Source of the DNA: Candidatus Electronema halotolerans
GTDB taxonomy: Bacteria > Desulfobacterota > Desulfobulbia > Desulfobulbales > Desulfobulbaceae
DNA length: 32,000 bases
Assembly: GCA_942493095.1 (NCBI GenBank)
Contig: OW818675.1
Location: 523,406 to 555,405, forward strand
Direction: 5' to 3'
Below, piece by piece: positions 3,001-13,313 of the stretch. The notes below the pieces were generated by a model. That model was not told where the DNA came from and made no database searches. It saw only the letters and a program-made list of their open reading frames with translations. The translations under genes and the position numbers were made by a program. Positions within the stretch are counted from its first letter, which is position 1, and every line of letters starts with the position of its first letter.

Positions 3001-3282
3001 GAATGCCTTGTACGGATTCAGCCCGGCCCGCTGACAGGCGGCCCGGAAGGTTTTTTCGTGCATTCTCGGCGAACAGGAGGCCACGACCACGCAGTCAAGG
3101 TCATGCTCCTTGATGTCCGTCTCCACCAGCTCTTGGCCGGGATCGGAACACATGAAGAGGTAATCGCGGGCCACGACCACGCCGGGCAAGGTGGCCGCAT
3201 ATTCAGCCACTTCCTGCACCCGAACTCTGTAGGCAATGTTGATGCCGCAGTGACAAATGTAAAATCCAATCCGTTTTGACAT
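1..3282 (-). CDS. HdrA-family flavoprotein with an inserted GltD/NfnB-like NAD(P)H-binding module (HdrL-type large heterodisulfide-reductase-like subunit). Partial: the 3' end lies beyond the left edge.
   Basis: Absent from the ORF track because it has no stop inside the window. The ATG is at 3282-3280, preceded by caGGAGAAacgac. My reverse-complement translation starts MSKRIGFYICHCGINIAYRVRVQEVAEY (HdrA-like N-terminus). It continues through VVGGGIAGMQASLDIAKAG (FAD fold) and GICTGCGDCAKVCP (4Fe-4S). Next come CKATCPAH...GRVCHHPCEGACTRG, KVAVVGSGPAGLTAAYYL and VIVIGGGNVAVD, which are GltD/NfnB-type motifs. The sequence then returns to HdrA-like motifs (CLECGVCSECYQCVDAC, HCIGSRD, CSRVCCMYALK) and ends at the edge in ICIGCQACIGLC...CKGCGSCAGHC. 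No minus-strand ORF is listed in this frame, which fits one uninterrupted 1094-codon frame. Confidence 0.85.
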   Translation of the reverse strand, partial: MSKRIGFYICHCGINIAYRVRVQEVAEYAATLPGVVVARDYLFMCSDPGQELVETDIKEHDLDCVVVASCSPRMHEKTFRAACQRAGLNPYKAFHMVCVREHVSWVTENEDEATEKAKTVVRAGITRVTKQSPLTPSKFSVNTNTLVVGGGIAGMQASLDIAKAGYKVYLVEKGSTVGNHMLQYDKTFPTLDCAACIGTPKMVAVGQHPNIELITHAEVEEVQGFIGNFKVKVHKKPRYVKEGICTGCGDCAKVCPITRPNEWDVGIADRKAIYRSFPQAVPITYIIDKKGPAPCKATCPAHVSIQGFIALMELGKYKEAVRVFKKDHPFPATCGRVCHHPCEGACTRGDVEQPMAIQHLHRYIADLDLDSADPYMPEIEQKRSEKVAVVGSGPAGLTAAYYLAQKGYQVTIFEKLPIKGGMMAVGIPEYRLPRETLAKEIGLIEKLGVVIKTNTAFGRDVTAASLRKDGYKALFIGTGLHGSRALGVPGEEMQGILPGVAFLRNVALGKDVTVGRKVIVIGGGNVAVDVALTAKRLGGAKVTMICLEKREEMPAWDYEVEEALEEQIDIINSLGPKRFLGADHVCTGVEFKRCTAVFDASGAFRPQYDENELISLEADTVIVAIGQSAELDFADSENIAVTKRGGLDVDPLTLQSPISWIFAGGDAVHGPRSVVEAVASGKEAAESIDRFLNGRQLEEGRARSWDYTKPDIGDKKPVKRERAPRLPVRERTGNFREIIGSLTEEQVQREVRRCLECGVCSECYQCVDACMPKAIDHDMQPETLELEVGSIIVATGFDLMDPTPMTQYGYGRHRNVYTSFEFERLSNATGPTSGKLLIRDDEGKFTKVPKSVAILHCIGSRDKNHHEYCSRVCCMYALKFAHLLKDKCGHDTQVYNFYIDMRCFGKGYEEFYKKVQEEGVRMIRGKAGQITELADKTLVVRAEDTLSGRMVEINVEMAILCMAIEPRKDALDVARTFGITTGADGFFQEEHPKLEPVSTPSSGVFLAGTCQGPKDISDTVAQAKGAAAECLSLSSSGTVEISPMISAIDPDICIGCQACIGLCAYGAITFNAYKGVSEVNEAVCKGCGSCAGHC

Positions 3283-3296
3283 GTCGTTTCTCCTGA

Positions 3297-5576
3297 TCAC
3301 AGCTCGTTGTTCCGACCGGAATTCTTTTCGTCAGATGCCGCCAAGGACTGCAAGACCAGCTCCGCGACATCATGGACCGCAATTTTTTGCTCAAGCCCGC
3401 GCTGCCGGACAGCATTATCGAGCATTTTCAGACAATAGGGGCAGGCGACCGCAATAATGTCCGCGCCCGTATCCAGAGCCTCCTGCACCCGCATTGCGCC
3501 GAGATTCTCGGCAGGCTGCTCCTTGAAGATGCCGCCACCACCACCGCCGCAGCAGAGGCTCTGCCGCCGGTTGTGGGCCATCTCAACCAAGGTGAAGCCG
3601 GGAATGCTGCTGAGTATCTGGCGCGGAGCATCATAGACACCATTATAGCGTCCCAAATAGCAGGGGTCATGATAGGTGACAGTCCGGCGCAGCTCCTTGA
3701 CCGGACGGACAGTGCCTTCCTGGATCAGCCGCCAGAGCAGCTCAGTGTAATGCTCCGCAGGCAGGTTCAGCCCCTCATAGTATTGGCTGAACGCGGTCAG
3801 GCAGTGCGGCGAGGCAGTCACCATCTTCTGCACACCAGCCTCAGCAAGGGCTGCCCTGTTTTTTGCCGCCAATTTGTTGAAAGTGGCAGTGTCGCCGCTC
3901 CGATGGGCCAAGTCGCCGCAACAGCTTTCCTTGTCACCCAAAGTGCGCACAGAAAGCCCAGCGGTTTGCAGCAGCCGCAGCAAAGCTCGACCCGCCATTT
4001 TGTTCCGCTGCGCCGGAGTCTCGTCATAGGCCGTGGTGCAGCAGGTGAAGAGACAGTATTCCGTTTCCGGTGTGACAGCGGGAAGGGCGGCATCTCCTGC
4101 CCAAGCAGCCCGCTGCGCCGGAGCACCCTGCCACGGATTGTTCTGTTCTTTGAGACTGTTCAGCGGTGCTTGCAAATATTCTGGAATCTTACCAGACTGG
4201 ATGTTCCGCTGCCGGATGGTTCTGGTCACATCAATAATTTCAATGCCGCGTGGACAGTTCTCCACACAGGCGTTGCAGGTCAGGCAGTTCCAGACGTTTT
4301 TGTCAACGTCCTCGACCGTGGCCGAGTCTGTGGAAATCGCCCGCAGAATCCGCCGGGCACTGTACGTGCTGACATTGTTGACCGGACAGACCGTGGTGCA
4401 GGTGCCGCACTGCATGCAGGCCATAAAGGTTTCATCAAGGTCTTTTTTCAAGGACTCGGCGTTGACCGTGGAAGGCTGGACCGCCTTTTTCTTGACTGTG
4501 GTCAGAAAGATGGCAAAGGGCCGGTAGAAGAGATGCGACCACTTGCCAAAAGGCACTTCAATGATCAGCATGGGCACGGCAATCGCCAGATGCACCACAT
4601 ACATGATGTAGGTCGGCAGCGGCCAGTTGCCAATGCGGAACAGGTGCATGACCATGCCGGACAAGGCGGTGAGGAAAAGCAGAATCAGGAAGAGCCAGTC
4701 TGTGGCATGGGAATAGCGATGGAGTGCCTCCTCCTTGGTCTTGTAGCGGCTCCAGAGCTTTTCCCCGGAAAAATACAGGATGGTGCCAGCGGCGTAATAC
4801 CCGAAGATGCTGGTGAAATGCCATTCTGCCGTGTCCCGCTGAAACCAGCGGATAAAGACCACGATCAGGAGCATCTTGGTCATGTAGCCGGTCATGAGGA
4901 GGAAATGCTTGAGCCAGCGCGAAATTTTCTTGGTATCGCTCGTGCAGCCCCGCCAGCGTTTCTGGGTGGCGAAATGGATGAGGAACTGCTTGGCCTCACT
5001 GAGCAGAAGGCTGGGCGGCACTGAGCTGTCGCCCATGATGTGGCGGTACATGCGGAACAGATTCGTGCCCAGAAACAGGGTCAGAATGCCGGTCATGAGC
5101 AGGTCGCCCATTTCAATCCAAGCGACCGGAGCAAAGGTGTTCAGTGCCACCCGGTCTGTGATCACCGGGCCATGAAAGAGCACGAACATCAGAATGATGC
5201 CAAGGGAGAGCGTGGCCAAGGAGCCGATTTCCCACGCCTTGGAAAGATACAATTTTTTCGCCAGTCCAGTCCAATCCAGCTCCGTGGTCAGCCAGCGGCG
5301 GACCGCCATCATGGTTTCCGCCGGTTCTGCGCCGCGTGGACAACGGATGTTGCAGTCGCCGCAATAGTAGCAGAGCCACGGCTCTGGCGCGGCCAGCAGC
5401 TTGTCCTTCAGACCGAGCTGGATATAGCGGTATATTTTCCGGGGAAAGGCATGGCTGCTCTCAGACAGGGAGCAGGAGGCGGAACAAAGACCGCACTGCA
5501 TGCACAGCTCCATGTCTTTGGCACCCAGCTCCTCAAGTTCCTTGTGCAATTCTTGCTGAACACTGTACTGTTTCAA
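3297..5576 (-). CDS. Membrane-anchored FeS/CCG-domain oxidoreductase: N-terminal ferredoxin-like Cys clusters, a multi-helix membrane domain, then an HdrD/GlpC/DsrK-like 2x[4Fe-4S] and CCG-domain part (HdrE-HdrD fusion type, HdrF-like).
   Basis: 759-aa ORF with a TTG start preceded by GAGGAG 7 nt upstream. Motifs seen: CMQCGLCSASC, CYYCGDCNIRCP, a block of hydrophobic helices (residues ~115-350), CMQCGTCTTVCP, CLTCNACVENCP, and CCG-type motifs CCGDLAH, HDPCYLGR, CCGGGGG, CPYCLKML. Its stop lies 14 nt upstream of the HdrL-type gene start. Confidence 0.85.
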   Translation of the reverse strand: MKQYSVQQELHKELEELGAKDMELCMQCGLCSASCSLSESSHAFPRKIYRYIQLGLKDKLLAAPEPWLCYYCGDCNIRCPRGAEPAETMMAVRRWLTTELDWTGLAKKLYLSKAWEIGSLATLSLGIILMFVLFHGPVITDRVALNTFAPVAWIEMGDLLMTGILTLFLGTNLFRMYRHIMGDSSVPPSLLLSEAKQFLIHFATQKRWRGCTSDTKKISRWLKHFLLMTGYMTKMLLIVVFIRWFQRDTAEWHFTSIFGYYAAGTILYFSGEKLWSRYKTKEEALHRYSHATDWLFLILLFLTALSGMVMHLFRIGNWPLPTYIMYVVHLAIAVPMLIIEVPFGKWSHLFYRPFAIFLTTVKKKAVQPSTVNAESLKKDLDETFMACMQCGTCTTVCPVNNVSTYSARRILRAISTDSATVEDVDKNVWNCLTCNACVENCPRGIEIIDVTRTIRQRNIQSGKIPEYLQAPLNSLKEQNNPWQGAPAQRAAWAGDAALPAVTPETEYCLFTCCTTAYDETPAQRNKMAGRALLRLLQTAGLSVRTLGDKESCCGDLAHRSGDTATFNKLAAKNRAALAEAGVQKMVTASPHCLTAFSQYYEGLNLPAEHYTELLWRLIQEGTVRPVKELRRTVTYHDPCYLGRYNGVYDAPRQILSSIPGFTLVEMAHNRRQSLCCGGGGGGIFKEQPAENLGAMRVQEALDTGADIIAVACPYCLKMLDNAVRQRGLEQKIAVHDVAELVLQSLAASDEKNSGRNNEL

Positions 5577-7779: not shown

Positions 7780-8085
7780 ATGGCAATTCCCAAGCGGCAG
7801 ATTCTGCTCTGCCAAAGTTTCCGGGCCGCAGGCGACAAAAAAGGCATCTGCCACAAGCAGAGTGATGGTTTCCTGCAATACATTGAGGAAGAAGTGATTG
7901 ATCGTGGCTTGGACTGTCTCGTCAGTGCCACCACCTGCCTCAAACAGTGCGAAAAAGGGCCGATCATGGTGATTCAGCCGGAAAACTGGTGGTTTGGCGG
8001 GGTGAACAGCGAGGAGGTCGTTGATGCCATTCTTGACGGTCTTGAAGAGGGCGAACCAGCAGCAGACTACCTGATTTCCGACTGA
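7780..8085 (+). CDS. Thioredoxin-like [2Fe-2S] ferredoxin.
   Basis: 101 aa with Cys pattern LLCQS...GICHK...TTCLKQCEKGP and the hallmark GPIMVIQPENWWFGGV. The AAGGAGAA RBS is 6 nt upstream of the ATG. Confidence 0.8.
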   Translation: MAIPKRQILLCQSFRAAGDKKGICHKQSDGFLQYIEEEVIDRGLDCLVSATTCLKQCEKGPIMVIQPENWWFGGVNSEEVVDAILDGLEEGEPAADYLISD

Positions 8086-8537
8086 TGAGCGCATCTGCCC
8101 GCATCCGCCGGGCCGAGCAGGCCGACATTCCTGCGTTGCTCGACCTGCTGCAACTGCTCTTCAGCATTGAGAAAGATTTTGTTTTCAATGCGGCCAAACA
8201 GGAGCGCGGACTGCGCCTGCTCTTGGCCGAGAGCAGGGCAGCAGTCATGGTTGCCGCGCAGGACCGGCAGGTGATCGGTCTATGCAGCGGGCAGCTCCTG
8301 ATTTCCACAGCCCAAGGCGGGCTGTCAGCGCTGGTGGAAGATGTCGTTGTCGCGCCCGCTTGGCAGGGCAAAGGAATCGGCAGGCAGCTTTTGGCAGCAA
8401 TCAGTGCATGGGCGGTCAGTCATGGCGCGAGCCGGGTGCAGCTCCTTGCCGACCAGAATAACACCCCGGCCTCAGCCTTTTACCAAAAAACAGGCTTTCA
8501 AACGACAGCAATGATCTGTCTGCGGAAAATAATATGA
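8085..8537 (+). CDS. GNAT-family N-acetyltransferase.
   Basis: 150 aa with acetyl-CoA motif A VVVAPAWQGKGIGRQLL and C-terminal NTPASAFYQKTGF. Its start overlaps the ferredoxin stop (TGATG). Confidence 0.85.
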   Translation: MSASARIRRAEQADIPALLDLLQLLFSIEKDFVFNAAKQERGLRLLLAESRAAVMVAAQDRQVIGLCSGQLLISTAQGGLSALVEDVVVAPAWQGKGIGRQLLAAISAWAVSHGASRVQLLADQNNTPASAFYQKTGFQTTAMICLRKII

Positions 8538-8965
8538 AGATTCAGCCTTTGCAGAGCTTGCAGCCAATCAGTGGCTGGGAGGATTTTTTCCGGCACGGCC
8601 AGGGCTATCTGAACGCCGCTGTCGGAGCGCACCGCAAGCAGGTGCAGGCCTTCACACCGGAGATTCTCTATAACTTGGCGGCAATGGCGATTGAGAAATT
8701 TGTCATGGCCGCCCTGATGCGGCACGGGGCCATGCCCTACAACCATACTATGGTGGATTTGGTTGAAGCGATGGAGAAAACCTTTCCGGGCAGACTGGGG
8801 CAAATTCAAGACGACCTGCTCCGTTTAGATAAATACCAGGAAATCTGCGATCTGGACGGCTTCAAGATCAGTCCGCCAAAGCCGGAGGAAATCCCGGCCA
8901 TGCTGGAAGTGGCAGAGAAGCTGCGGGAGCTGGTTCTTGGAGAGCTGCTTGCCTGCAACGTATAA
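8534..8965 (+). CDS. HEPN-domain-like protein.
   Basis: 143 aa. The helix pair YNLAAMAIEKFVMAALMRHGAMPYNHTMVDLVEAM follows the classic HEPN pattern (A.EK..KA.L...G..P...H.LV.L). The start overlaps the GNAT stop (ATGA). There is no clean Rx4-6H RNase motif. Confidence 0.55.
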   Translation: MKIQPLQSLQPISGWEDFFRHGQGYLNAAVGAHRKQVQAFTPEILYNLAAMAIEKFVMAALMRHGAMPYNHTMVDLVEAMEKTFPGRLGQIQDDLLRLDKYQEICDLDGFKISPPKPEEIPAMLEVAEKLRELVLGELLACNV

Positions 8966-9334: not shown

Positions 9335-9556
9335 ATGGCAAAAGCAGATGTGGAAAAATTGCTGGAAGCAGGCGGCAAGGATAAGAAGATCAAGGCAAAA
9401 TATGATGTTCCGGCCACCAAGGAAGAGTTTGTCGCCTTGGCAGCGCAGGACGGCTACAACTTCACCGTGGAGGAGCTGGAAGCTGTGCTCAAAGAATCCG
9501 GCGATGTCTTTGAAAAATACGGCAATCCGCCTAAACGGTCAATTTGGTGGACATAG
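9335..9556 (+). CDS. Nif11-domain small protein.
   Basis: 73 aa. MAKADVEKLLEAGGKDKKIKAKYDVPATKEEFVALAAQDGYNFTVEEL fits the Nif11 N-terminal domain pattern. The GGAGG RBS is 7 nt upstream. A strong terminator follows. Confidence 0.75.
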   Translation: MAKADVEKLLEAGGKDKKIKAKYDVPATKEEFVALAAQDGYNFTVEELEAVLKESGDVFEKYGNPPKRSIWWT

Positions 9557-9562
9557 AAAGAC

Positions 9563-9600
9563 AAAAGAAGGATGCAAGTAATGCATCCTTCTTTTTGTTT
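9563..9600. terminator. Bidirectional rho-independent terminator.
   Basis: Perfect 12-bp stem AAGAAGGATGCA (9565-9576) / TGCATCCTTCTT (9582-9593) with a 5-nt loop. A-rich 5' flank and TTTGTTT 3' flank. It sits between the convergent genes ending at 9556 (+) and 9652 (-). Confidence 0.8.
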
Positions 9601-9651
9601 GACAGGATAGGCAATCTAAATCATTAGATTGATTTTAGCTGATTGCCTTTT

Positions 9652-10209
9652 TTACATTGGAATGCAGAACAACCTCTGGTCGAACGATTCCTTGCCGAAT
9701 ATGTACCAAACACTTCCTGCTGCACTCAAGCAGATTTTATGCACATCGAATGACAATGTCAAAGAAAGATCAGCACCCGCCAATCCTACATTTGGGTGAA
9801 AACCAACAGTTACGTTATGACTGTCAAAATTGTATGATGTGCACCATACTTTGGCACCTGCAACAATAAGACACACTTTAAGCTCTGCTTGCCAGTCTGA
9901 TGGCGTTCCGCATACCTTTAATTCTCCCCCTATTCCTACGATTTTATACAGAGAAACTTCAAATGGTTGGGTTTTGCAGTTGTCAACAGTTTTCAGTGCG
10001 CCAAGAACAGGCATACGAGCTGCTGCTGCACGAACCATAGGAGCTGCTGTGGCAGGCTCTGCCGCATCTCTGCTAATAGCAGAGAGAATCTGCTCTTTAA
10101 GCTTGTCAACTGGCATGTCAGCATGCGCTGCCATCATCTGCCAATCTTTCTCGCTAACATGAGAAGATACAGCTTGTAATGTATCCTTTTCCATTTTTAC
10201 ATCCTCCAT
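9652..10209 (-). CDS. Orphan hypothetical protein encoded in AT-rich island A.
   Basis: A 185-aa ORF that is visibly lower in GC than its neighbours. The second ATG (10194) has a GGAGGA RBS and may be the true start. The acidic/helical N-terminus is followed by a beta-rich, Cys-containing C-terminal half. No family recognised. Confidence 0.6.
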   Translation of the reverse strand: MEDVKMEKDTLQAVSSHVSEKDWQMMAAHADMPVDKLKEQILSAISRDAAEPATAAPMVRAAAARMPVLGALKTVDNCKTQPFEVSLYKIVGIGGELKVCGTPSDWQAELKVCLIVAGAKVWCTSYNFDSHNVTVGFHPNVGLAGADLSLTLSFDVHKICLSAAGSVWYIFGKESFDQRLFCIPM

Positions 10210-10330
10210 GTAATTTGTTAACTTCCATCCAAGATAGATGGAATAATTTTGTCCATTATAATTTGGCTAAAAAAAAATCAATAAAAAAGTATTGTTAGGA
10301 ATAATTATTATTCTTGAAAGTAGGCAAAAA

Positions 10331-10447
10331 TATAGTGTTGCAGGTTTCCGAAGCAGAGTGTTTTAAGGAGTGGTTCGCATTCAATTTGCTAATTTTACTT
10401 GCTTAATATTGGCACAGGCTAACGTAACAGAAAGTTGCAACACTATA
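10331..10447. repeat. Perfect 12-bp inverted repeat enclosing a 93-nt AT-rich segment.
   Basis: TATAGTGTTGCA (10331-10342) and TGCAACACTATA (10436-10447). The pairing extends by TTTC/GAAA after a 2-nt mismatch. It lies at the right edge of island A. Confidence 0.7.
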
Positions 10448-10485
10448 GGTTCAGTTTATTAAAAAAAATGAAGAATGGAATAGGC

Positions 10486-10592
10486 ACGGCTACAACTTCA
10501 CCGTAGAGGAGCTGGAAGCGGTGCTCAAAGAATCCGGCGATGTCTTTGAAAAATACGGCAATCCGCCCAAGCGTTCCATCTGGTGGACCTGA
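10486..10592 (+). pseudogene. Start-less duplicate of the last 35 codons of the Nif11-like gene.
   Basis: Encodes (H)GYNFTVEELEAVLKESGDVFEKYGNPPKRSIWWT*, identical to the C-terminus of the 9335..9556 product. There is an in-frame TAG at 10447-10449 and no ATG/GTG/TTG between it and the repeat. Confidence 0.7.
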
Positions 10593-10621: not shown

Positions 10622-11728
10622 TCATCTTGCCGGGATGCTCCGGGATGCCTTGACCGCCGCTGCTGCCGCATCATGAAACCAAGGCCGGAACTGGCGGATT
10701 CTGCTGTTCTCCCGGCTCGGATGAACCCGGTTGCTGAGGAGAATGACAATCAGCTCCTGCTCCGGGTCGATCCAGAATGAAGTGCCGGTGAAGCCCAGAT
10801 GACCGACACTTTGGGCGGAGAAATGCCTGCCGCTGCTGGATGAGCCGGGCGTGGGTCTGTCAAAGCCGAGACACCAGGTCTGGCCGGAGAGCTGCGGCTG
10901 CAAGCCTTGGGACAGAAAAGCCGCCCAAGAGCTGGCCACGGCTTCCCCTCTCTCACCCTGCCAATTATCCAAAATCACCCCGCAGAGCTGCAACACCCCG
11001 CTGACTGTGCCGAACAATCCCGCATGACCGGCAAGGCCGTTTACGAGCCAGCAATGCTCATCATGCACCTCACCCCGCATCATCCTGCCCCGCCATGAGC
11101 ACTGCTCTGTGGCGGCGCAGTTCTGCCTCTGCTCCACGCTGACCTGACAGAGCAGCTCTTTTCCCAGCCCCAGCGGCCCCGCAATCCGCTCCTGAAAATT
11201 GGCGGCCAAATCCTTGTCAGTCAACTCCTCCGCTATCCACCCCAGCAGAATGAAGCCAAGATCGCTGTACAAACAGCGGCTCTCCGGCGCATAGGCCATT
11301 GGCTCGTTGAGAATGAGACGAAGCAACCGCGCCTTGTGGTCCGTTTTTTGCACCGGCGCAAAGGTCTTGAACCACGGCTGATAAGCGGCCAGCCCGGATG
11401 AATGCGAGAGCAGCCTGCGCAGCGTGATCTGCTGTTTGTCCGGCGGCACATCAGGCAGCAGATCAGCCAGCCTGTCTTCCAGCCGGAGCCGCCCTTCCGC
11501 AAAAAAATCGTAGAAAAGCAAGGTGGTCGAAAGGGCCTTGCTCAACGAGGCCAGATCAAACAGGGTGGCCGCCGTCACCAGGGACTGGTCGCGGCTGTCC
11601 ATGACTCCGGCCCACGCTGTCCACGTCTGCCGGGCCGGGCCAGTGCCGCAGGCGACTGCCGCTGCCGCGCCGGGAAAAACCTGTTCGGCAAGCCCCTGCC
11701 GCAGGAGCCGCTGTAGTGTCTGGATCAT
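10622..11728 (-). CDS. Serine hydrolase of the beta-lactamase / penicillin-binding-protein (class C-like) family.
   Basis: 368 aa with SxxK motif FDLASLSKAL, a YSDLGFILLG (YxN-like) motif and a late HLGFTGTSFWIDP (K/HTG-like) motif. Confidence 0.85.
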   Translation of the reverse strand: MIQTLQRLLRQGLAEQVFPGAAAAVACGTGPARQTWTAWAGVMDSRDQSLVTAATLFDLASLSKALSTTLLFYDFFAEGRLRLEDRLADLLPDVPPDKQQITLRRLLSHSSGLAAYQPWFKTFAPVQKTDHKARLLRLILNEPMAYAPESRCLYSDLGFILLGWIAEELTDKDLAANFQERIAGPLGLGKELLCQVSVEQRQNCAATEQCSWRGRMMRGEVHDEHCWLVNGLAGHAGLFGTVSGVLQLCGVILDNWQGERGEAVASSWAAFLSQGLQPQLSGQTWCLGFDRPTPGSSSSGRHFSAQSVGHLGFTGTSFWIDPEQELIVILLSNRVHPSRENSRIRQFRPWFHDAAAAAVKASRSIPAR

Positions 11729-11749
11729 GTTTGAGGGTCATATTTGGGT

Positions 11750-11894
11750 GTTGAAAACTTGTTGAAAACCTGTTGATAACTTGTTGATAACTTCCTGCCG
11801 CCGCTGCCGCCCGCCGAGTTATCAACAAGTTATTAACAAAGTTATCAACACCTCTTTTACTGAAAAACAAGCAGGTTGCGTTAGTTTTCAACAG
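11750..11894. repeat. Phased array of 11-bp repeats forming a long imperfect palindrome. The 9-mer cores resemble DnaA boxes.
   Basis: Four tandem units: GTTGAAAACTT, GTTGAAAACCT, GTTGATAACTT, GTTGATAACTT (11750-11793). A 24-nt GC-only spacer follows. Then come inverted units GTTATCAACAA, GTTATTAACAA, GTTATCAACAC (11818-11851) and a distal GTTTTCAACAG (11884-11894). TTATCAACA matches 8 of 9 positions of the TTATCCACA box. A nearly pure A/T tract follows at 11921-11946. Confidence 0.8.
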
Positions 11895-11958
11895 GTGCGG
11901 CCCGTCCCAACAACAATAGGTTATATATATACAATATATTTATTAAGGCCGCTCCGAC

Positions 11959-12048
11959 CTGTGGAAAACTGCGTCATAAAAAAAGCCCGTGACCAAAAAG
12001 ATCACGGGCTGCGAACATCTTTGAACGAAAAACGGTCAGCGGCTCACC
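11959..12048. repeat. Direct repeat copy 1 (DR1), a terminator-containing ~90-nt segment.
   Basis: Aligns by eye with 13053-13144, roughly 85-90% identical with a few 1-2-nt indels. A further partial copy of its first ~10-20 nt (GGAAAACTG/GAAACTGCGT) lies at 12068-12086. Confidence 0.75.
11978..12010 (-). terminator. Rho-independent terminator downstream of the DUF559-fusion gene.
   Basis: Minus strand: AGCCCGTGA-loop-TCACGGGCT (9-bp stem) followed by a U-run (the A-run 11978-11984 on the plus strand). Confidence 0.7.
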
Positions 12049-13052
12049 GTAGCTGAAAAAAAGAGGCGGAAAACTGGAAACTGCGTTGGAGATTCAAATT
12101 ATCGTTATATATCAAACAGATTCAGTTGAACAAAACCGGGTTCTTTCAAATTGATTTTTTGCTGGGCAGACTCACCTTCTTTCAAACCGCCTAATCTGTT
12201 GATATTTTTTACTATTGTCGGGACACAATATTCGGATGCGCTTTCTTTTACTTGGAGGGTATTAAAACGAAGCACTCTCCAGCCTTCTGTTTTCAAATTA
12301 TTGTCACGAACATTATCTTTTGCGGCTTGTTGACGATTTGCGTGCCAAAAGTCTCCGTCTGTTTCAACGTCAATCTTTCCTGATTGACAATATATTGCAA
12401 AATCCAAAGCATAGTGTCTGTTATTAACATTTACAAACTCCTGACGTTCCGCATTTATCTGCAACCGTTTAAATTCTGACCATAAACGGTCTTCAAGGGG
12501 ACTTGCATCGAAAAGATCATTTATTTCAACTGCTGTGACAAACTTTTCCCATGTTGTCGAAATGAACACTAATCGTCTGTAACGCCTGCTGAGAATAGGT
12601 TTTGGTAAACGTTTAAGGGGCGGATCGATAAAAATTTGGTAATACCTTTTCCTGCTTTTTACATTAGCAGGTTCATCAGGAAAAAGCTGCCATCTGTAAG
12701 CCTTTTTGATATCTAATATTTTCGCGTAATAGTTTATCGCATAAGCATCTTTGCCAAAGACTTTCGTCATGTAAAACGCTATAAAGCAAGGAGGCCAACG
12801 CTTTTTCAGCCATTTCTCAACGCTGCTGACAGGAATCCGATACCAATGCTTTTCATTCACAATGGAAAAATCATGCAAATTGTTAATTATTGCCACAAGC
12901 ACTTCGTTATGCAAATCGTTATCCATTACAACAGCTTCAAATGAAGGCCTTCAACAGCAGCCAAGTTAATCCGCGCATCTGCCCCCTCCACGCGAGAACT
13001 TCAGCACTTTCCGAAAAATCATCCAAGGCATGGAATTTCAGACAGTACCAAT
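12049..13052. mobile_element. AT-rich single-gene insert (island B), bracketed by ~90-nt direct repeats.
   Basis: Visibly low-GC DNA with one gene, lying between DR1 (11959-12048) and DR2 (13053-13144). No recombinase gene. Confidence 0.5.
12105..12926 (-). CDS. Two-domain protein: an uncharacterised N-terminal domain fused to a C-terminal DUF559 / Vsr-like (PD-(D/E)xK superfamily) endonuclease domain.
   Basis: 273 aa. The C-terminus HYALDFAIYCQSGKIDVETDGDFWHANRQQAAKDNVRDNNLKTEGWRVLRF is the DUF559/Vsr-type motif set. I do not recognise the N-terminal ~150 aa (HWYRIPVSS...PPCFIAFYMTKVFG...). Codon usage is strongly AT-biased relative to neighbours. Confidence 0.75.
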   Translation of the reverse strand: MDNDLHNEVLVAIINNLHDFSIVNEKHWYRIPVSSVEKWLKKRWPPCFIAFYMTKVFGKDAYAINYYAKILDIKKAYRWQLFPDEPANVKSRKRYYQIFIDPPLKRLPKPILSRRYRRLVFISTTWEKFVTAVEINDLFDASPLEDRLWSEFKRLQINAERQEFVNVNNRHYALDFAIYCQSGKIDVETDGDFWHANRQQAAKDNVRDNNLKTEGWRVLRFNTLQVKESASEYCVPTIVKNINRLGGLKEGESAQQKINLKEPGFVQLNLFDI

Positions 13053-13144
13053 CTGTGAAAAACTGCGCCATGAAAAAAGCCCGTGACCAGAAGATCACGG
13101 GCTGCGAAACATCTCTGAACGAAAAAGCTCGTCAGCGGCTCACC
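13053..13144. repeat. Direct repeat copy 2 (DR2), covering the stop codon, 3' UTR and terminator of the YTD-type operon.
   Basis: Aligns with 11959-12048. It overlaps the TGA (13140-13142) of the 57-aa ORF. Confidence 0.75.
13073..13103 (-). terminator. Rho-independent terminator of the tusA-dsrE-like operon.
   Basis: Minus strand: AGCCCGTGA-loop-TCACGGGCT followed by TTTTTT. It lies about 40 nt downstream of the stop at 13140. Confidence 0.75.
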
Positions 13145-13313
13145 ACCAGCAGACAGTCTTGTCAGCGGCGAAAATCTTGCTCACCAGCTCATCGTAGTTG
13201 GGATTTTCCTCATAGAGACGGAATTCATCCGCCTCCCGGTCACGGTTGAGAATCTCAACCAAGGTCGTGACCACCTCGTTCGGCTCGGAACGATACACTT
13301 GCAGCATTTTCAT
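13140..13313 (-). CDS. Small conserved-hypothetical-type ORF (57 aa), last gene of the tusA/dsrE-like operon.
   Basis: Below the ORF-track size cutoff. The ATG at 13313 is preceded by AGGAGGAGAA. My translation is MKMLQVYRSEPNEVVTTLVEILNRDREADEFRLYEENPNYDELVSKIFAADKTVCWW*. It starts 15 nt after the upstream gene's stop. Confidence 0.6.
   Translation of the reverse strand: MKMLQVYRSEPNEVVTTLVEILNRDREADEFRLYEENPNYDELVSKIFAADKTVCWW

Follow-up and report, generated by a model that had tools for sequence, protein, structure and literature searches.

The closest well-described counterpart of the locus examined here is the replication origin of Escherichia coli, oriC, which is not adjacent to dnaA and whose low-affinity DnaA boxes, separated by 2 bp (an 11-bp period), form two opposed arrays. 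It is found as a single copy, between mnmG and mioC, in 5425 of 5426 genomes. The E. coli origin was retrieved, and it and the window (the whole 32-kb stretch of DNA analysed in this study) were marked by identical rules. On its upper strand the E. coli sequence runs from TTGT ... TTATT through a 13-nt GC-rich linker to box R1 (TGTGGATAA), and continues with a gap, boxes of the same sense and finally opposed boxes; TTGT and TTATT lie at least 15 nt upstream of R1. These are the motifs by which DnaA holds the unwound, T-rich strand in E. coli (PMC10316083). A second described arrangement, the basal unwinding system of the Bacillus subtilis type, follows a simple rule: a DnaA box with no more than two mismatches, a spacer of 0–16 bp (commonly about 13, with 16 as the maximum) and at least three trinucleotides with a central adenine (NAN x3), the DnaA-trios (Pelliciari et al. 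2021, PMC8287927). Closer to the present genome are the predicted origins upstream of dnaN in Desulfobulbus propionicus and other Desulfobulbales. The datA and DARS sites of E. coli, like the locus described here, are clusters of DnaA boxes away from dnaA, but they are not known to possess a DNA unwinding element (DUE) whose single-strand-binding motifs keep a fixed distance to an oriented box.

Positions 11749–11969 of the window (221 bp) probably constitute a chromosomal oriC, the ancestral dnaN-side origin that stayed with a serine hydrolase gene when dnaN was relocated. An oriC is an ordinary element, and this one is unusual only in that it no longer adjoins dnaN or dnaA. The block contains nine 9-mers, all within two mismatches of the DnaA box TTATCCACA, which bears out the DnaA-box-like cores noted in the original prediction, and the clustering is far beyond chance. 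The exact motif TTWTCMACA occurs 11 times in the window, with eight copies inside 11740–11975, against a mean of 0.5 per window in 300 shuffles, where the largest 235-bp cluster held two. TGTTGAWAAC, allowing one mismatch, has 16 matches in the window compared with 2.6 ± 1.7 in dinucleotide shuffles, and nine of the 16 fall within the 221 bp. A dispersed repeat of the REP/BIME type, which had also been raised, was not seen within the window: there is one cluster in 32 kb, the other matches being single 10-mers, and the relatives carry one cluster per 13–21-kb locus, always at the syntenic site. Among the features by which Ori-Finder 2022 recognizes oriC (PMC10225481), both the cluster of boxes in an intergenic region and an adjoining AT-rich element are present, the latter a candidate DUE by composition. 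The adjacent indicator gene is not: no dnaA, dnaN, gidA or other such gene was found anywhere in the 32 kb of the window, nor, in five relatives (including L225, L226, L313 and L314), less than 10 kb from the block. The orthologous region does have one, dnaN, next to it in D. propionicus, strain B35 and 15 metagenome contigs.

The block begins 20 nt from the ATG of the minus-strand hydrolase gene (10622–11728, 368 aa, beta-lactamase fold), whose start at 11728 was correctly placed in the original prediction and which is the conserved neighbour in all relatives. The hydrolase-proximal array (11749–11791, minus strand) has four boxes with an 11-bp period, reading TTTTCAACA, TTTTCAACA, TTATCAACA and TTATCAACA on the minus strand. 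They correspond to the four direct 11-mers of the form GTTGA[A/T]AAC[T/C]T that had been reported at 11750–11793 (GTTGAAAACTT, GTTGAAAACCT, GTTGATAACTT, GTTGATAACTT), and the exact 11-bp period was confirmed. By its layout the array appears analogous to the right DnaA-oligomerisation region of E. coli, and 3–4 boxes are its counterpart in L225, L224, L313, L314 and L226. A spacer of 24 nt follows (11794–11817, CCTGCCGCCGCTGCCGCCCGCCGA); its length is as predicted, but it is not made of G and C only, having 21 of 24 G+C (two T, one A). It is near-identical in L225 and L224, is represented by a GC-rich stretch in L314, and is AT-rich in L226. Beyond it lie three boxes of opposite sense (11818–11850, plus strand; TTATCAACA, TTATTAACA, TTATCAACA), with units starting at 11818, 11829 and 11841, giving spacings of 11 and 12 bp. 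This inverted array is similarly a likely analogue of the left oligomerisation region.

The three inverted units and a fourth after 33 nt were found as predicted, the fourth being the R1-like, DUE-proximal box GTTTTCAACA (11884–11893, plus strand), which has the orientation relative to the AT tract that R1 has in E. coli. Its sequence is TGTTGAAAA in the window, L224, L226, L313 and L314, and TGTTGATAA in L225. The length of the intervening gap (11851–11883) is kept in relatives at 33–34 nt and its sequence is not. By analogy to the IHF region that separates R1 from R5M in E. coli, it is a possible candidate site for a DNA-bending protein; the IHF consensus was not found inside the 33 nt, and perfect matches to it, TATCAACAAGTTA, arise only as a by-product of the tandem boxes.

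On the other side of the R1-like box, a 14-nt GC-rich linker (ggtgcggcccgtcc, 11894–11907) leads to the trinucleotide run TTGTTGTTG (11908–11916, minus strand), a TTR repeat with TTGT motifs that shares its strand with the TGTGGATAA-sense of the neighbouring box and is a candidate single-strand DnaA-binding element. The AT-rich tract TTATATATATACAATATATTTATTAA (11921–11946) is a candidate DUE and occurs at the equivalent position in all relatives. It had been described as a 26-nt tract of A and T only, about 27 nt past the last unit, and while the length and the 27-nt distance from box 11884–11893 hold, one C reduces the A+T to 25 of 26. A ninth unit, overlooked in the original prediction, lies beyond the tract (plus-strand TGTGGAAAAC, 11960–11969). 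Together with a 13-nt GC-rich linker it occupies 11947–11969, and its box, TTTTCCACA (11960–11968, minus strand), points at the AT tract from the far side. It is conserved in L225 and L224 and degenerate (TTTTGAACA) in L226, and similarity to close relatives stops just past it. The outer boundary of the block is an intrinsic terminator (11984–12010, minus strand) of an upstream minus-strand operon, so that the block fills the gap between this terminator and the hydrolase gene. A terminator scan of 11500–12300 returned 12010–11984 and one weaker candidate, and a homologous stem, CCCGTGATC...GGGC, is present in L225, L226, L313 and L314. The operon behind it consists of a 57-aa gene and an inserted DUF559 gene; the latter (12105–12926) is the operon's last gene, is AT-rich and specifies an endonuclease-like protein.

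As far as can be read from the sequence, the order of elements in the block matches that of E. coli oriC. Followed along the minus strand from the DUE side, it presents the AT tract, TATTGTTGTTG, the 14-nt GC-rich linker and TGTTGAAAA, and then the 33-nt gap, three same-sense boxes, the 24-nt spacer and four opposed boxes. The TTGT/TTATT-type motif that in E. coli stands on the strand carrying the TGTGGATAA sense would thus be represented by TATTGTTGTTG, 14 nt upstream of TGTTGAAAA on the minus strand. There are also clear differences. The boxes of the window are near-identical copies of TTWTCAACA whereas those of E. coli are a mix of strong and weak sites, clusters of GATC are absent, the gap proximal to the R1-like box has no IHF consensus, and the ninth box, beyond the AT tract, is additional. 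The two loci also have different neighbours: a serine hydrolase gene and a small-protein operon in the window, and gidA and mioC in E. coli.

The same tandem unit is found in many other genomes. A scan for two adjacent units (TGTTGAWAACNTGTTGAWAAC, TGTTGAWAAC-N-TGTTGAWAAC), using one genome per species, gave at least 120 loci across many phyla, and in many of them the units form opposed arrays as in the window. In the loci inspected, units are interleaved with the canonical box TGTGGATAA, and the arrays lead into a box, a short GC-rich linker, then (CTA)n DnaA-trios and an AT tract. Flanking genes identified by Pfam include dnaA-[array]-dnaN (L023), dnaN-[array]-dnaA (L106), dnaA-[array]-recF (L063) and gidA-[array]-nusA (L109), and among the matches listed, 29 of 120 genome loci have dnaA or dnaN inside the same 8-kb block, as against none of 101 viral loci. 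From these loci and their flanking genes it follows that TTATCAACA and TTTTCAACA are DnaA-box variants of real origins, and that phased, opposed arrays are an origin layout.

The occurrence of similar tandem units in viral contigs is one of the observations in favour of an iteron-type origin, as had been suggested, or a partition site, inherited from a plasmid, phage or other replicon that had integrated. Short phased repeats in direct and inverted sets would also suit such an origin, as would the flanking AT-rich islands at 9.5–10.5 kb and 12–13 kb in an otherwise AT-poor chromosome. Nevertheless, it is the least probable of the readings considered, and only a very slight chance can be given to it. 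No Rep, Par, integrase or relaxase gene was detected in the window using Pfam and NCBIfam, a similarity search of plasmids gave no match at E ≤ 1e-5, and phage matches were limited to two 5-kb viruses and to 44 bp of tandem boxes. Neither a cognate rep or par gene nor similarity to a known replicon beyond those 44 bp was found, and synteny of the block with its neighbour gene extends across a bacterial family, the two lying beside the housekeeping genes dnaN-gyrB-gyrA in the basal arrangement. Resemblances to the 11-bp ParR sites of the plasmid R1 parC type, and to operator arrays of ribbon-helix-helix proteins, were set aside in view of the missing par or rep gene and of the units being DnaA-box variants.

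Comparison with relatives supports the oriC reading. The hydrolase protein shares 66–67% identity with its orthologs in Candidatus Electronema species, 49% with that of D. propionicus and 69–98% with those of metagenomic relatives, which puts the organism in the Desulfobulbaceae, with Ca. Electronema as its nearest named kin. The block is kept directly upstream of the hydrolase ortholog in six relatives, among them L225 and L224 (88% identity), L313 (71%), L314 (69%) and Ca. Electronema aureum (L226, 67%). In each, the order is terminator, AT tract, TTG/TTA run, a 12–14-nt linker, TGTTGAAAA (TGTTGATAA in L225), a 33–34-nt gap, same-sense boxes, a spacer, 3–4 opposed boxes and the hydrolase start codon. 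What surrounds the block is far less stable. The gene downstream of the hydrolase is different in every relative, the flanks beyond the block differ too, and L224 has insertion-sequence debris at the position of the window's DUF559 gene. That the core is conserved amid so much rearrangement speaks for its being under selection.

In more distant relatives the hydrolase gene is paired with dnaN. In D. propionicus (CP002364.1, at about 3.78 of 3.85 Mb), as in strain B35, the ortholog and dnaN-gyrB-gyrA point away from each other, and genes on both sides diverge from the intergenic region of 259–290 bp that separates them. A metagenome scan with a hydrolase alignment, which returned only distant relatives (33–59% identity), found the pairing in another 15 of 80 loci. 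The dnaN-linked intergenic regions align with the block of the window and have the same order of elements: an AT-rich stretch and a run of TTGTTGTTG or TTATTA..., 23–48 nt from the dnaN start codon, followed by box-like 9-mers in matching orientation. The latter are enriched 5-fold, with 71 found against 13.3 ± 3.8 in shuffles. Since the regions of D. propionicus and B35 have only weak boxes, that they are themselves origins is something we infer. In contrast to these dnaN-side regions, the window and five close relatives lack dnaN-gyrB-gyrA and have a TusA/small-protein operon instead, to which the DUF559 gene is an addition in the window and L225; their boxes, at least in the window, are more numerous and more regular. 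A DnaN search aimed at Ca. Electronema returned only Desulfobulbus-type proteins among its best 120 matches. The AT tract and TTR run have been conserved despite the loss of dnaN, and in the window the strand that dnaN formerly occupied encodes nothing; this argues against their being mere signals for dnaN expression. Overall, the first of the functions originally proposed, an oriC-like DnaA site, is supported by the usage of the units in other genomes, by orthology to dnaN-side regions and by the E. coli-like order.

A different function is suggested by the symmetry of the arrays. They could serve as an operator to which a protein other than DnaA binds cooperatively at several sites, or form a large cruciform or leader hairpin that controls the hydrolase gene. 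The complementarity is real, with 20 of 22 positions matching in the strings first compared and 21 of 22 for the arms 11771–11792 and 11817–11838. The 11-bp phasing and inverted arms permit a stem of about 22–40 bp, and folded as single-stranded DNA the region reaches −32.9 kcal/mol (z = −5.7), so that the predicted cruciform or hairpin is physically possible; the tandem units also create the perfect IHF consensus mentioned above. As the primary function of the locus, however, this is very improbable. Hairpin potential is reduced in Ca. Electronema aureum and has disappeared in D. propionicus and B35 (z = −2.0 and −0.15), whereas the orientation and spacing of the boxes persist, and variation between the arms is not compensatory. 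The units themselves are DnaA-box variants of origins that are linked to dnaA or dnaN elsewhere, no regulator gene is adjacent, and a scan of the whole window found no Rfam family, leaving neither a known family nor covariation in favour of a structured RNA. Boxes that reach to within 20 nt of the hydrolase ATG must nevertheless overlap its promoter, and a side effect on transcription is likely; DnaA occupancy of the block probably also affects expression of the hydrolase. A sigma-70 promoter scan of 11500–12300 found nothing.

The trinucleotide run requires separate comment. Measured against the basal unwinding rule (PMC8287927), the window has the box (TTTTCAACA, two mismatches) and a spacer of 14 nt, but in place of DnaA-trios the run reads TTG TTG TTG, and no (NAN)x3 occurs within 16 nt of either flanking box. 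The geometry is nonetheless that of the B. subtilis-type system, including a box, a 14-nt spacer, at least three trinucleotides and an AT-rich tract, and relative to the box the run takes the same strand as its counterparts in the reference origins from the tandem-unit scan. The difference lies in the repeats, which are TTG/TTA rather than TAG/TAA, the central adenine being replaced by thymine. As the trio-defining adenine is absent, the element is described here as E. coli-like and not as a DnaA-trio array. Of 23 orthologous intergenic regions, 18 contain an exact (TTR)≥3 run (chance 1–19% for each), with the next box usually 12–14 nt away; the gap between box and run is 14 nt in the window and 12–14 nt in most relatives. 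At the trio position the relatives have TTG/TTA, and a TAG run was found in just one of the 23 regions (L241). It may be speculated, tentatively, that in Desulfobulbales origins TTG/TTA repeats replace the TAG/TAA DnaA-trios 12–14 nt from an oriented box, and that the module works uncoupled from dnaA and dnaN, amid variable flanks, in the cable-bacteria-like lineage. Should this prove true, a search rule based on a central adenine misses a whole bacterial order, and the first origin of a cable-bacteria relative would be fixed for peak-to-trough estimates of growth rate from metagenomes.

How such an origin would operate can be modelled on E. coli. DnaA would bind the nine boxes, seven of which form two opposed, helically phased arrays (3 + 4). 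Head-to-tail oligomers of DnaA could build on these, the 11-bp phasing setting the monomers on one face of the helix, with the two arrays carrying oppositely directed oligomers. A bending protein may occupy the conserved 33–34-nt gap, and DnaA extending or looping from the boxes would then open the AT tract. Opening would be directed by the R1-like box, 14 nt from the TTGTTGTTG run, and possibly also by the ninth box, which faces the AT tract from the far side. The T-rich strand that continues from the TGTTGAAAA box could be held single-stranded via its TTGT motifs, as in E. coli oriC. Historically, the origin of the family would have been between dnaN and the hydrolase gene, and in the Electronema-like lineage a breakpoint at the start of dnaN presumably removed dnaN-gyrB-gyrA and left all origin elements with the hydrolase.

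The main rival to the oriC reading, and the other half of the first function originally proposed, is a non-origin cluster of DnaA boxes, either a relic of the dnaN side or a titrating or reactivating site (datA/DARS-like) that regulates the hydrolase, with the active origin elsewhere, for example beside dnaA or a relocated dnaN. Such a cluster would account for the lack of a nearby indicator gene and for boxes that overlap the hydrolase promoter, 20 nt from the ATG. It would also agree with the position of the homologous locus in the closed genome of Ca. Electronema aureum (OW818638.1), about 924.5 kb into 2.94 Mb, which is far from dnaA if the record starts at dnaA. Many assemblies do start at that gene. 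The local GC skew, which relates to the chromosome-wide GC-disparity minimum that Ori-Finder also looks for, is weak too. In the window the cumulative skew falls to 14.7 kb and then rises, with a mean of −0.016 to the left of the block and +0.021 to the right; this leans toward an origin, but the signal is weak and noisy and its minimum lies about 2.8 kb from the block. In the 13–21-kb flanks of five relatives the signs are mixed, without a clean sign change in three of the five (L226, L231 and L225). Between 14.7 and 31 kb, to the right of the block, almost every gene is on the plus strand, which likewise leans toward an origin; those to the left are mostly on the plus strand as well, and would run head-on to replication.

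Even so, a cluster without origin function is unlikely. Titration or regulation needs no AT tract, no TTR run and no fixed 12–14-nt linker to an oriented box, yet these DUE-side elements are conserved at protein identities of 67–98% despite the loss of dnaN. It is in this conserved AT tract and run beside an oriented box that the locus differs from datA and DARS. A relic would be expected to decay, but in the lineage of the window the boxes exceed those of the dnaN-linked versions in both number and regularity. In addition, the breakpoint left every origin element on the hydrolase side.

Taken as an oriC, the block provides a concrete and testable origin coordinate for an uncultured Desulfobulbaceae lineage related to cable bacteria, which can anchor growth estimates from metagenomic coverage, analyses of strand bias and the orientation of genomes. 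Sequencing runs that contain this sequence are ERR9669565 and ERR9670067. No origin coordinate was found in the literature searched on cable-bacteria genomes and their cell cycle, and a search for publications on the origin in cable bacteria or Desulfobulbus retrieved nothing relevant. What is modestly new is the detachment from both dnaA and dnaN, the unusual regularity of the box arrays, and an order-wide TTG/TTA run in place of TAG trios. It would be a natural example of an origin that stayed while its marker gene, dnaN, moved, and advises caution in locating origins by adjacency to dnaA or dnaN alone. The conserved TTG/TTA run at trio distance, for its part, represents a small, testable challenge to the central-adenine rule for DnaA-trios.

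Outside the block, the window is ordinary chromosome. A tRNA/tmRNA scan of the window detected none, and the other genes include those for an Hdr-like Fe-S protein, a NifB-like radical SAM protein, a sulfur transporter of the YeeE/TsuA type and an iron alcohol dehydrogenase, along with cobT, cobS, mobB and genes for hybrid histidine kinases.

A DUF559/Vsr-like endonuclease-fold gene (12105-12926, minus strand, in the region 12000-13000) is AT-rich, having a G+C content of 40%, and is placed between the gene for a 57-aa protein (13140-13313) and the conserved terminator of that operon, which marks the outer edge of the predicted origin block. Since it is present in L225, a relative with 88% identity in the serine hydrolase, but absent from Ca. 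Electronema aureum, L313 and L314, it looks like an insertion beside the predicted origin. A second AT-rich island (9500-10500, 39% G+C) lies downstream of the hydrolase gene and contains an ORF of 185 aa (9652-10209, minus strand) that gave no significant family match; the neighbour at that place differs in every relative. In L313 (71% hydrolase identity) the gene adjoining the hydrolase gene is dnaE, specifying the DNA polymerase III alpha subunit (L313:11193-16052), and it contains an intein with a LAGLIDADG domain. The other relative at 88% identity, L224, has no intact gene beyond its origin block (L224:1-1830), and because only short ORFs are found there, including one IS-like zinc-finger/HTH fragment, this stretch suggests transposon debris at a rearrangement point.

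Placing TTATCAACA units in tandem with an 11-bp period automatically yields sequence that fits the IHF consensus WATCAANNNNTTR perfectly (TATCAACAAGTTA). Such candidate sites lie in the window at 11817-11829 and at 11771-11793 (reverse complement), as a by-product of the tandem boxes.

DnaA-box-like arrays may also lie at or near the origins of small ssDNA phages. Two 5-kb GenBank records named 'bajarodmic virus' (PQ006335.1 and PQ006436.1) share 44 bp of similarity with the tandem boxes of the window. On viral contigs of about 6 kb (L165 at 3079-3300, and also L155, L127, L202, L187 and L172), TGTTGATAAC and TGTTCATAAC units form arrays of opposite orientation directly downstream of a Rep gene; in L165 the stretch 1979-2935 matches Pfam REP_ORF2-G2P. 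Three larger viral contigs (L150:7495-7760, L135:3452-3700 and L216:1258-1500) carry 8-11 TGTTGAAAAC units in one direction, followed by 'ggggggttagtttt' repeats, an arrangement that looks like a phage origin made of DnaA-box-like iterons.

DnaA-box-like cores are also part of a dispersed repeat of about 150 bp, containing TGTTGATAACTTGTTGATAAC and an inverted GTTTTCAACA within conserved flanks ('aaaactgcgtcgaaaaa...'), of which there are at least six copies in each of two MAGs, Kiritimatiellae RGIG7486 (L026, L029, L032, L035, L044, L045) and Ca. Spyradenecus (L027, L037, L068, L094, L108, L116).

Elsewhere in the window, at 8085-8965, a small gene with a weak HEPN match (E 0.0016, below the Pfam cut-off) comes after a GNAT acetyltransferase gene and overlaps it by 4 bp; the two possibly form a toxin-antitoxin-like pair.
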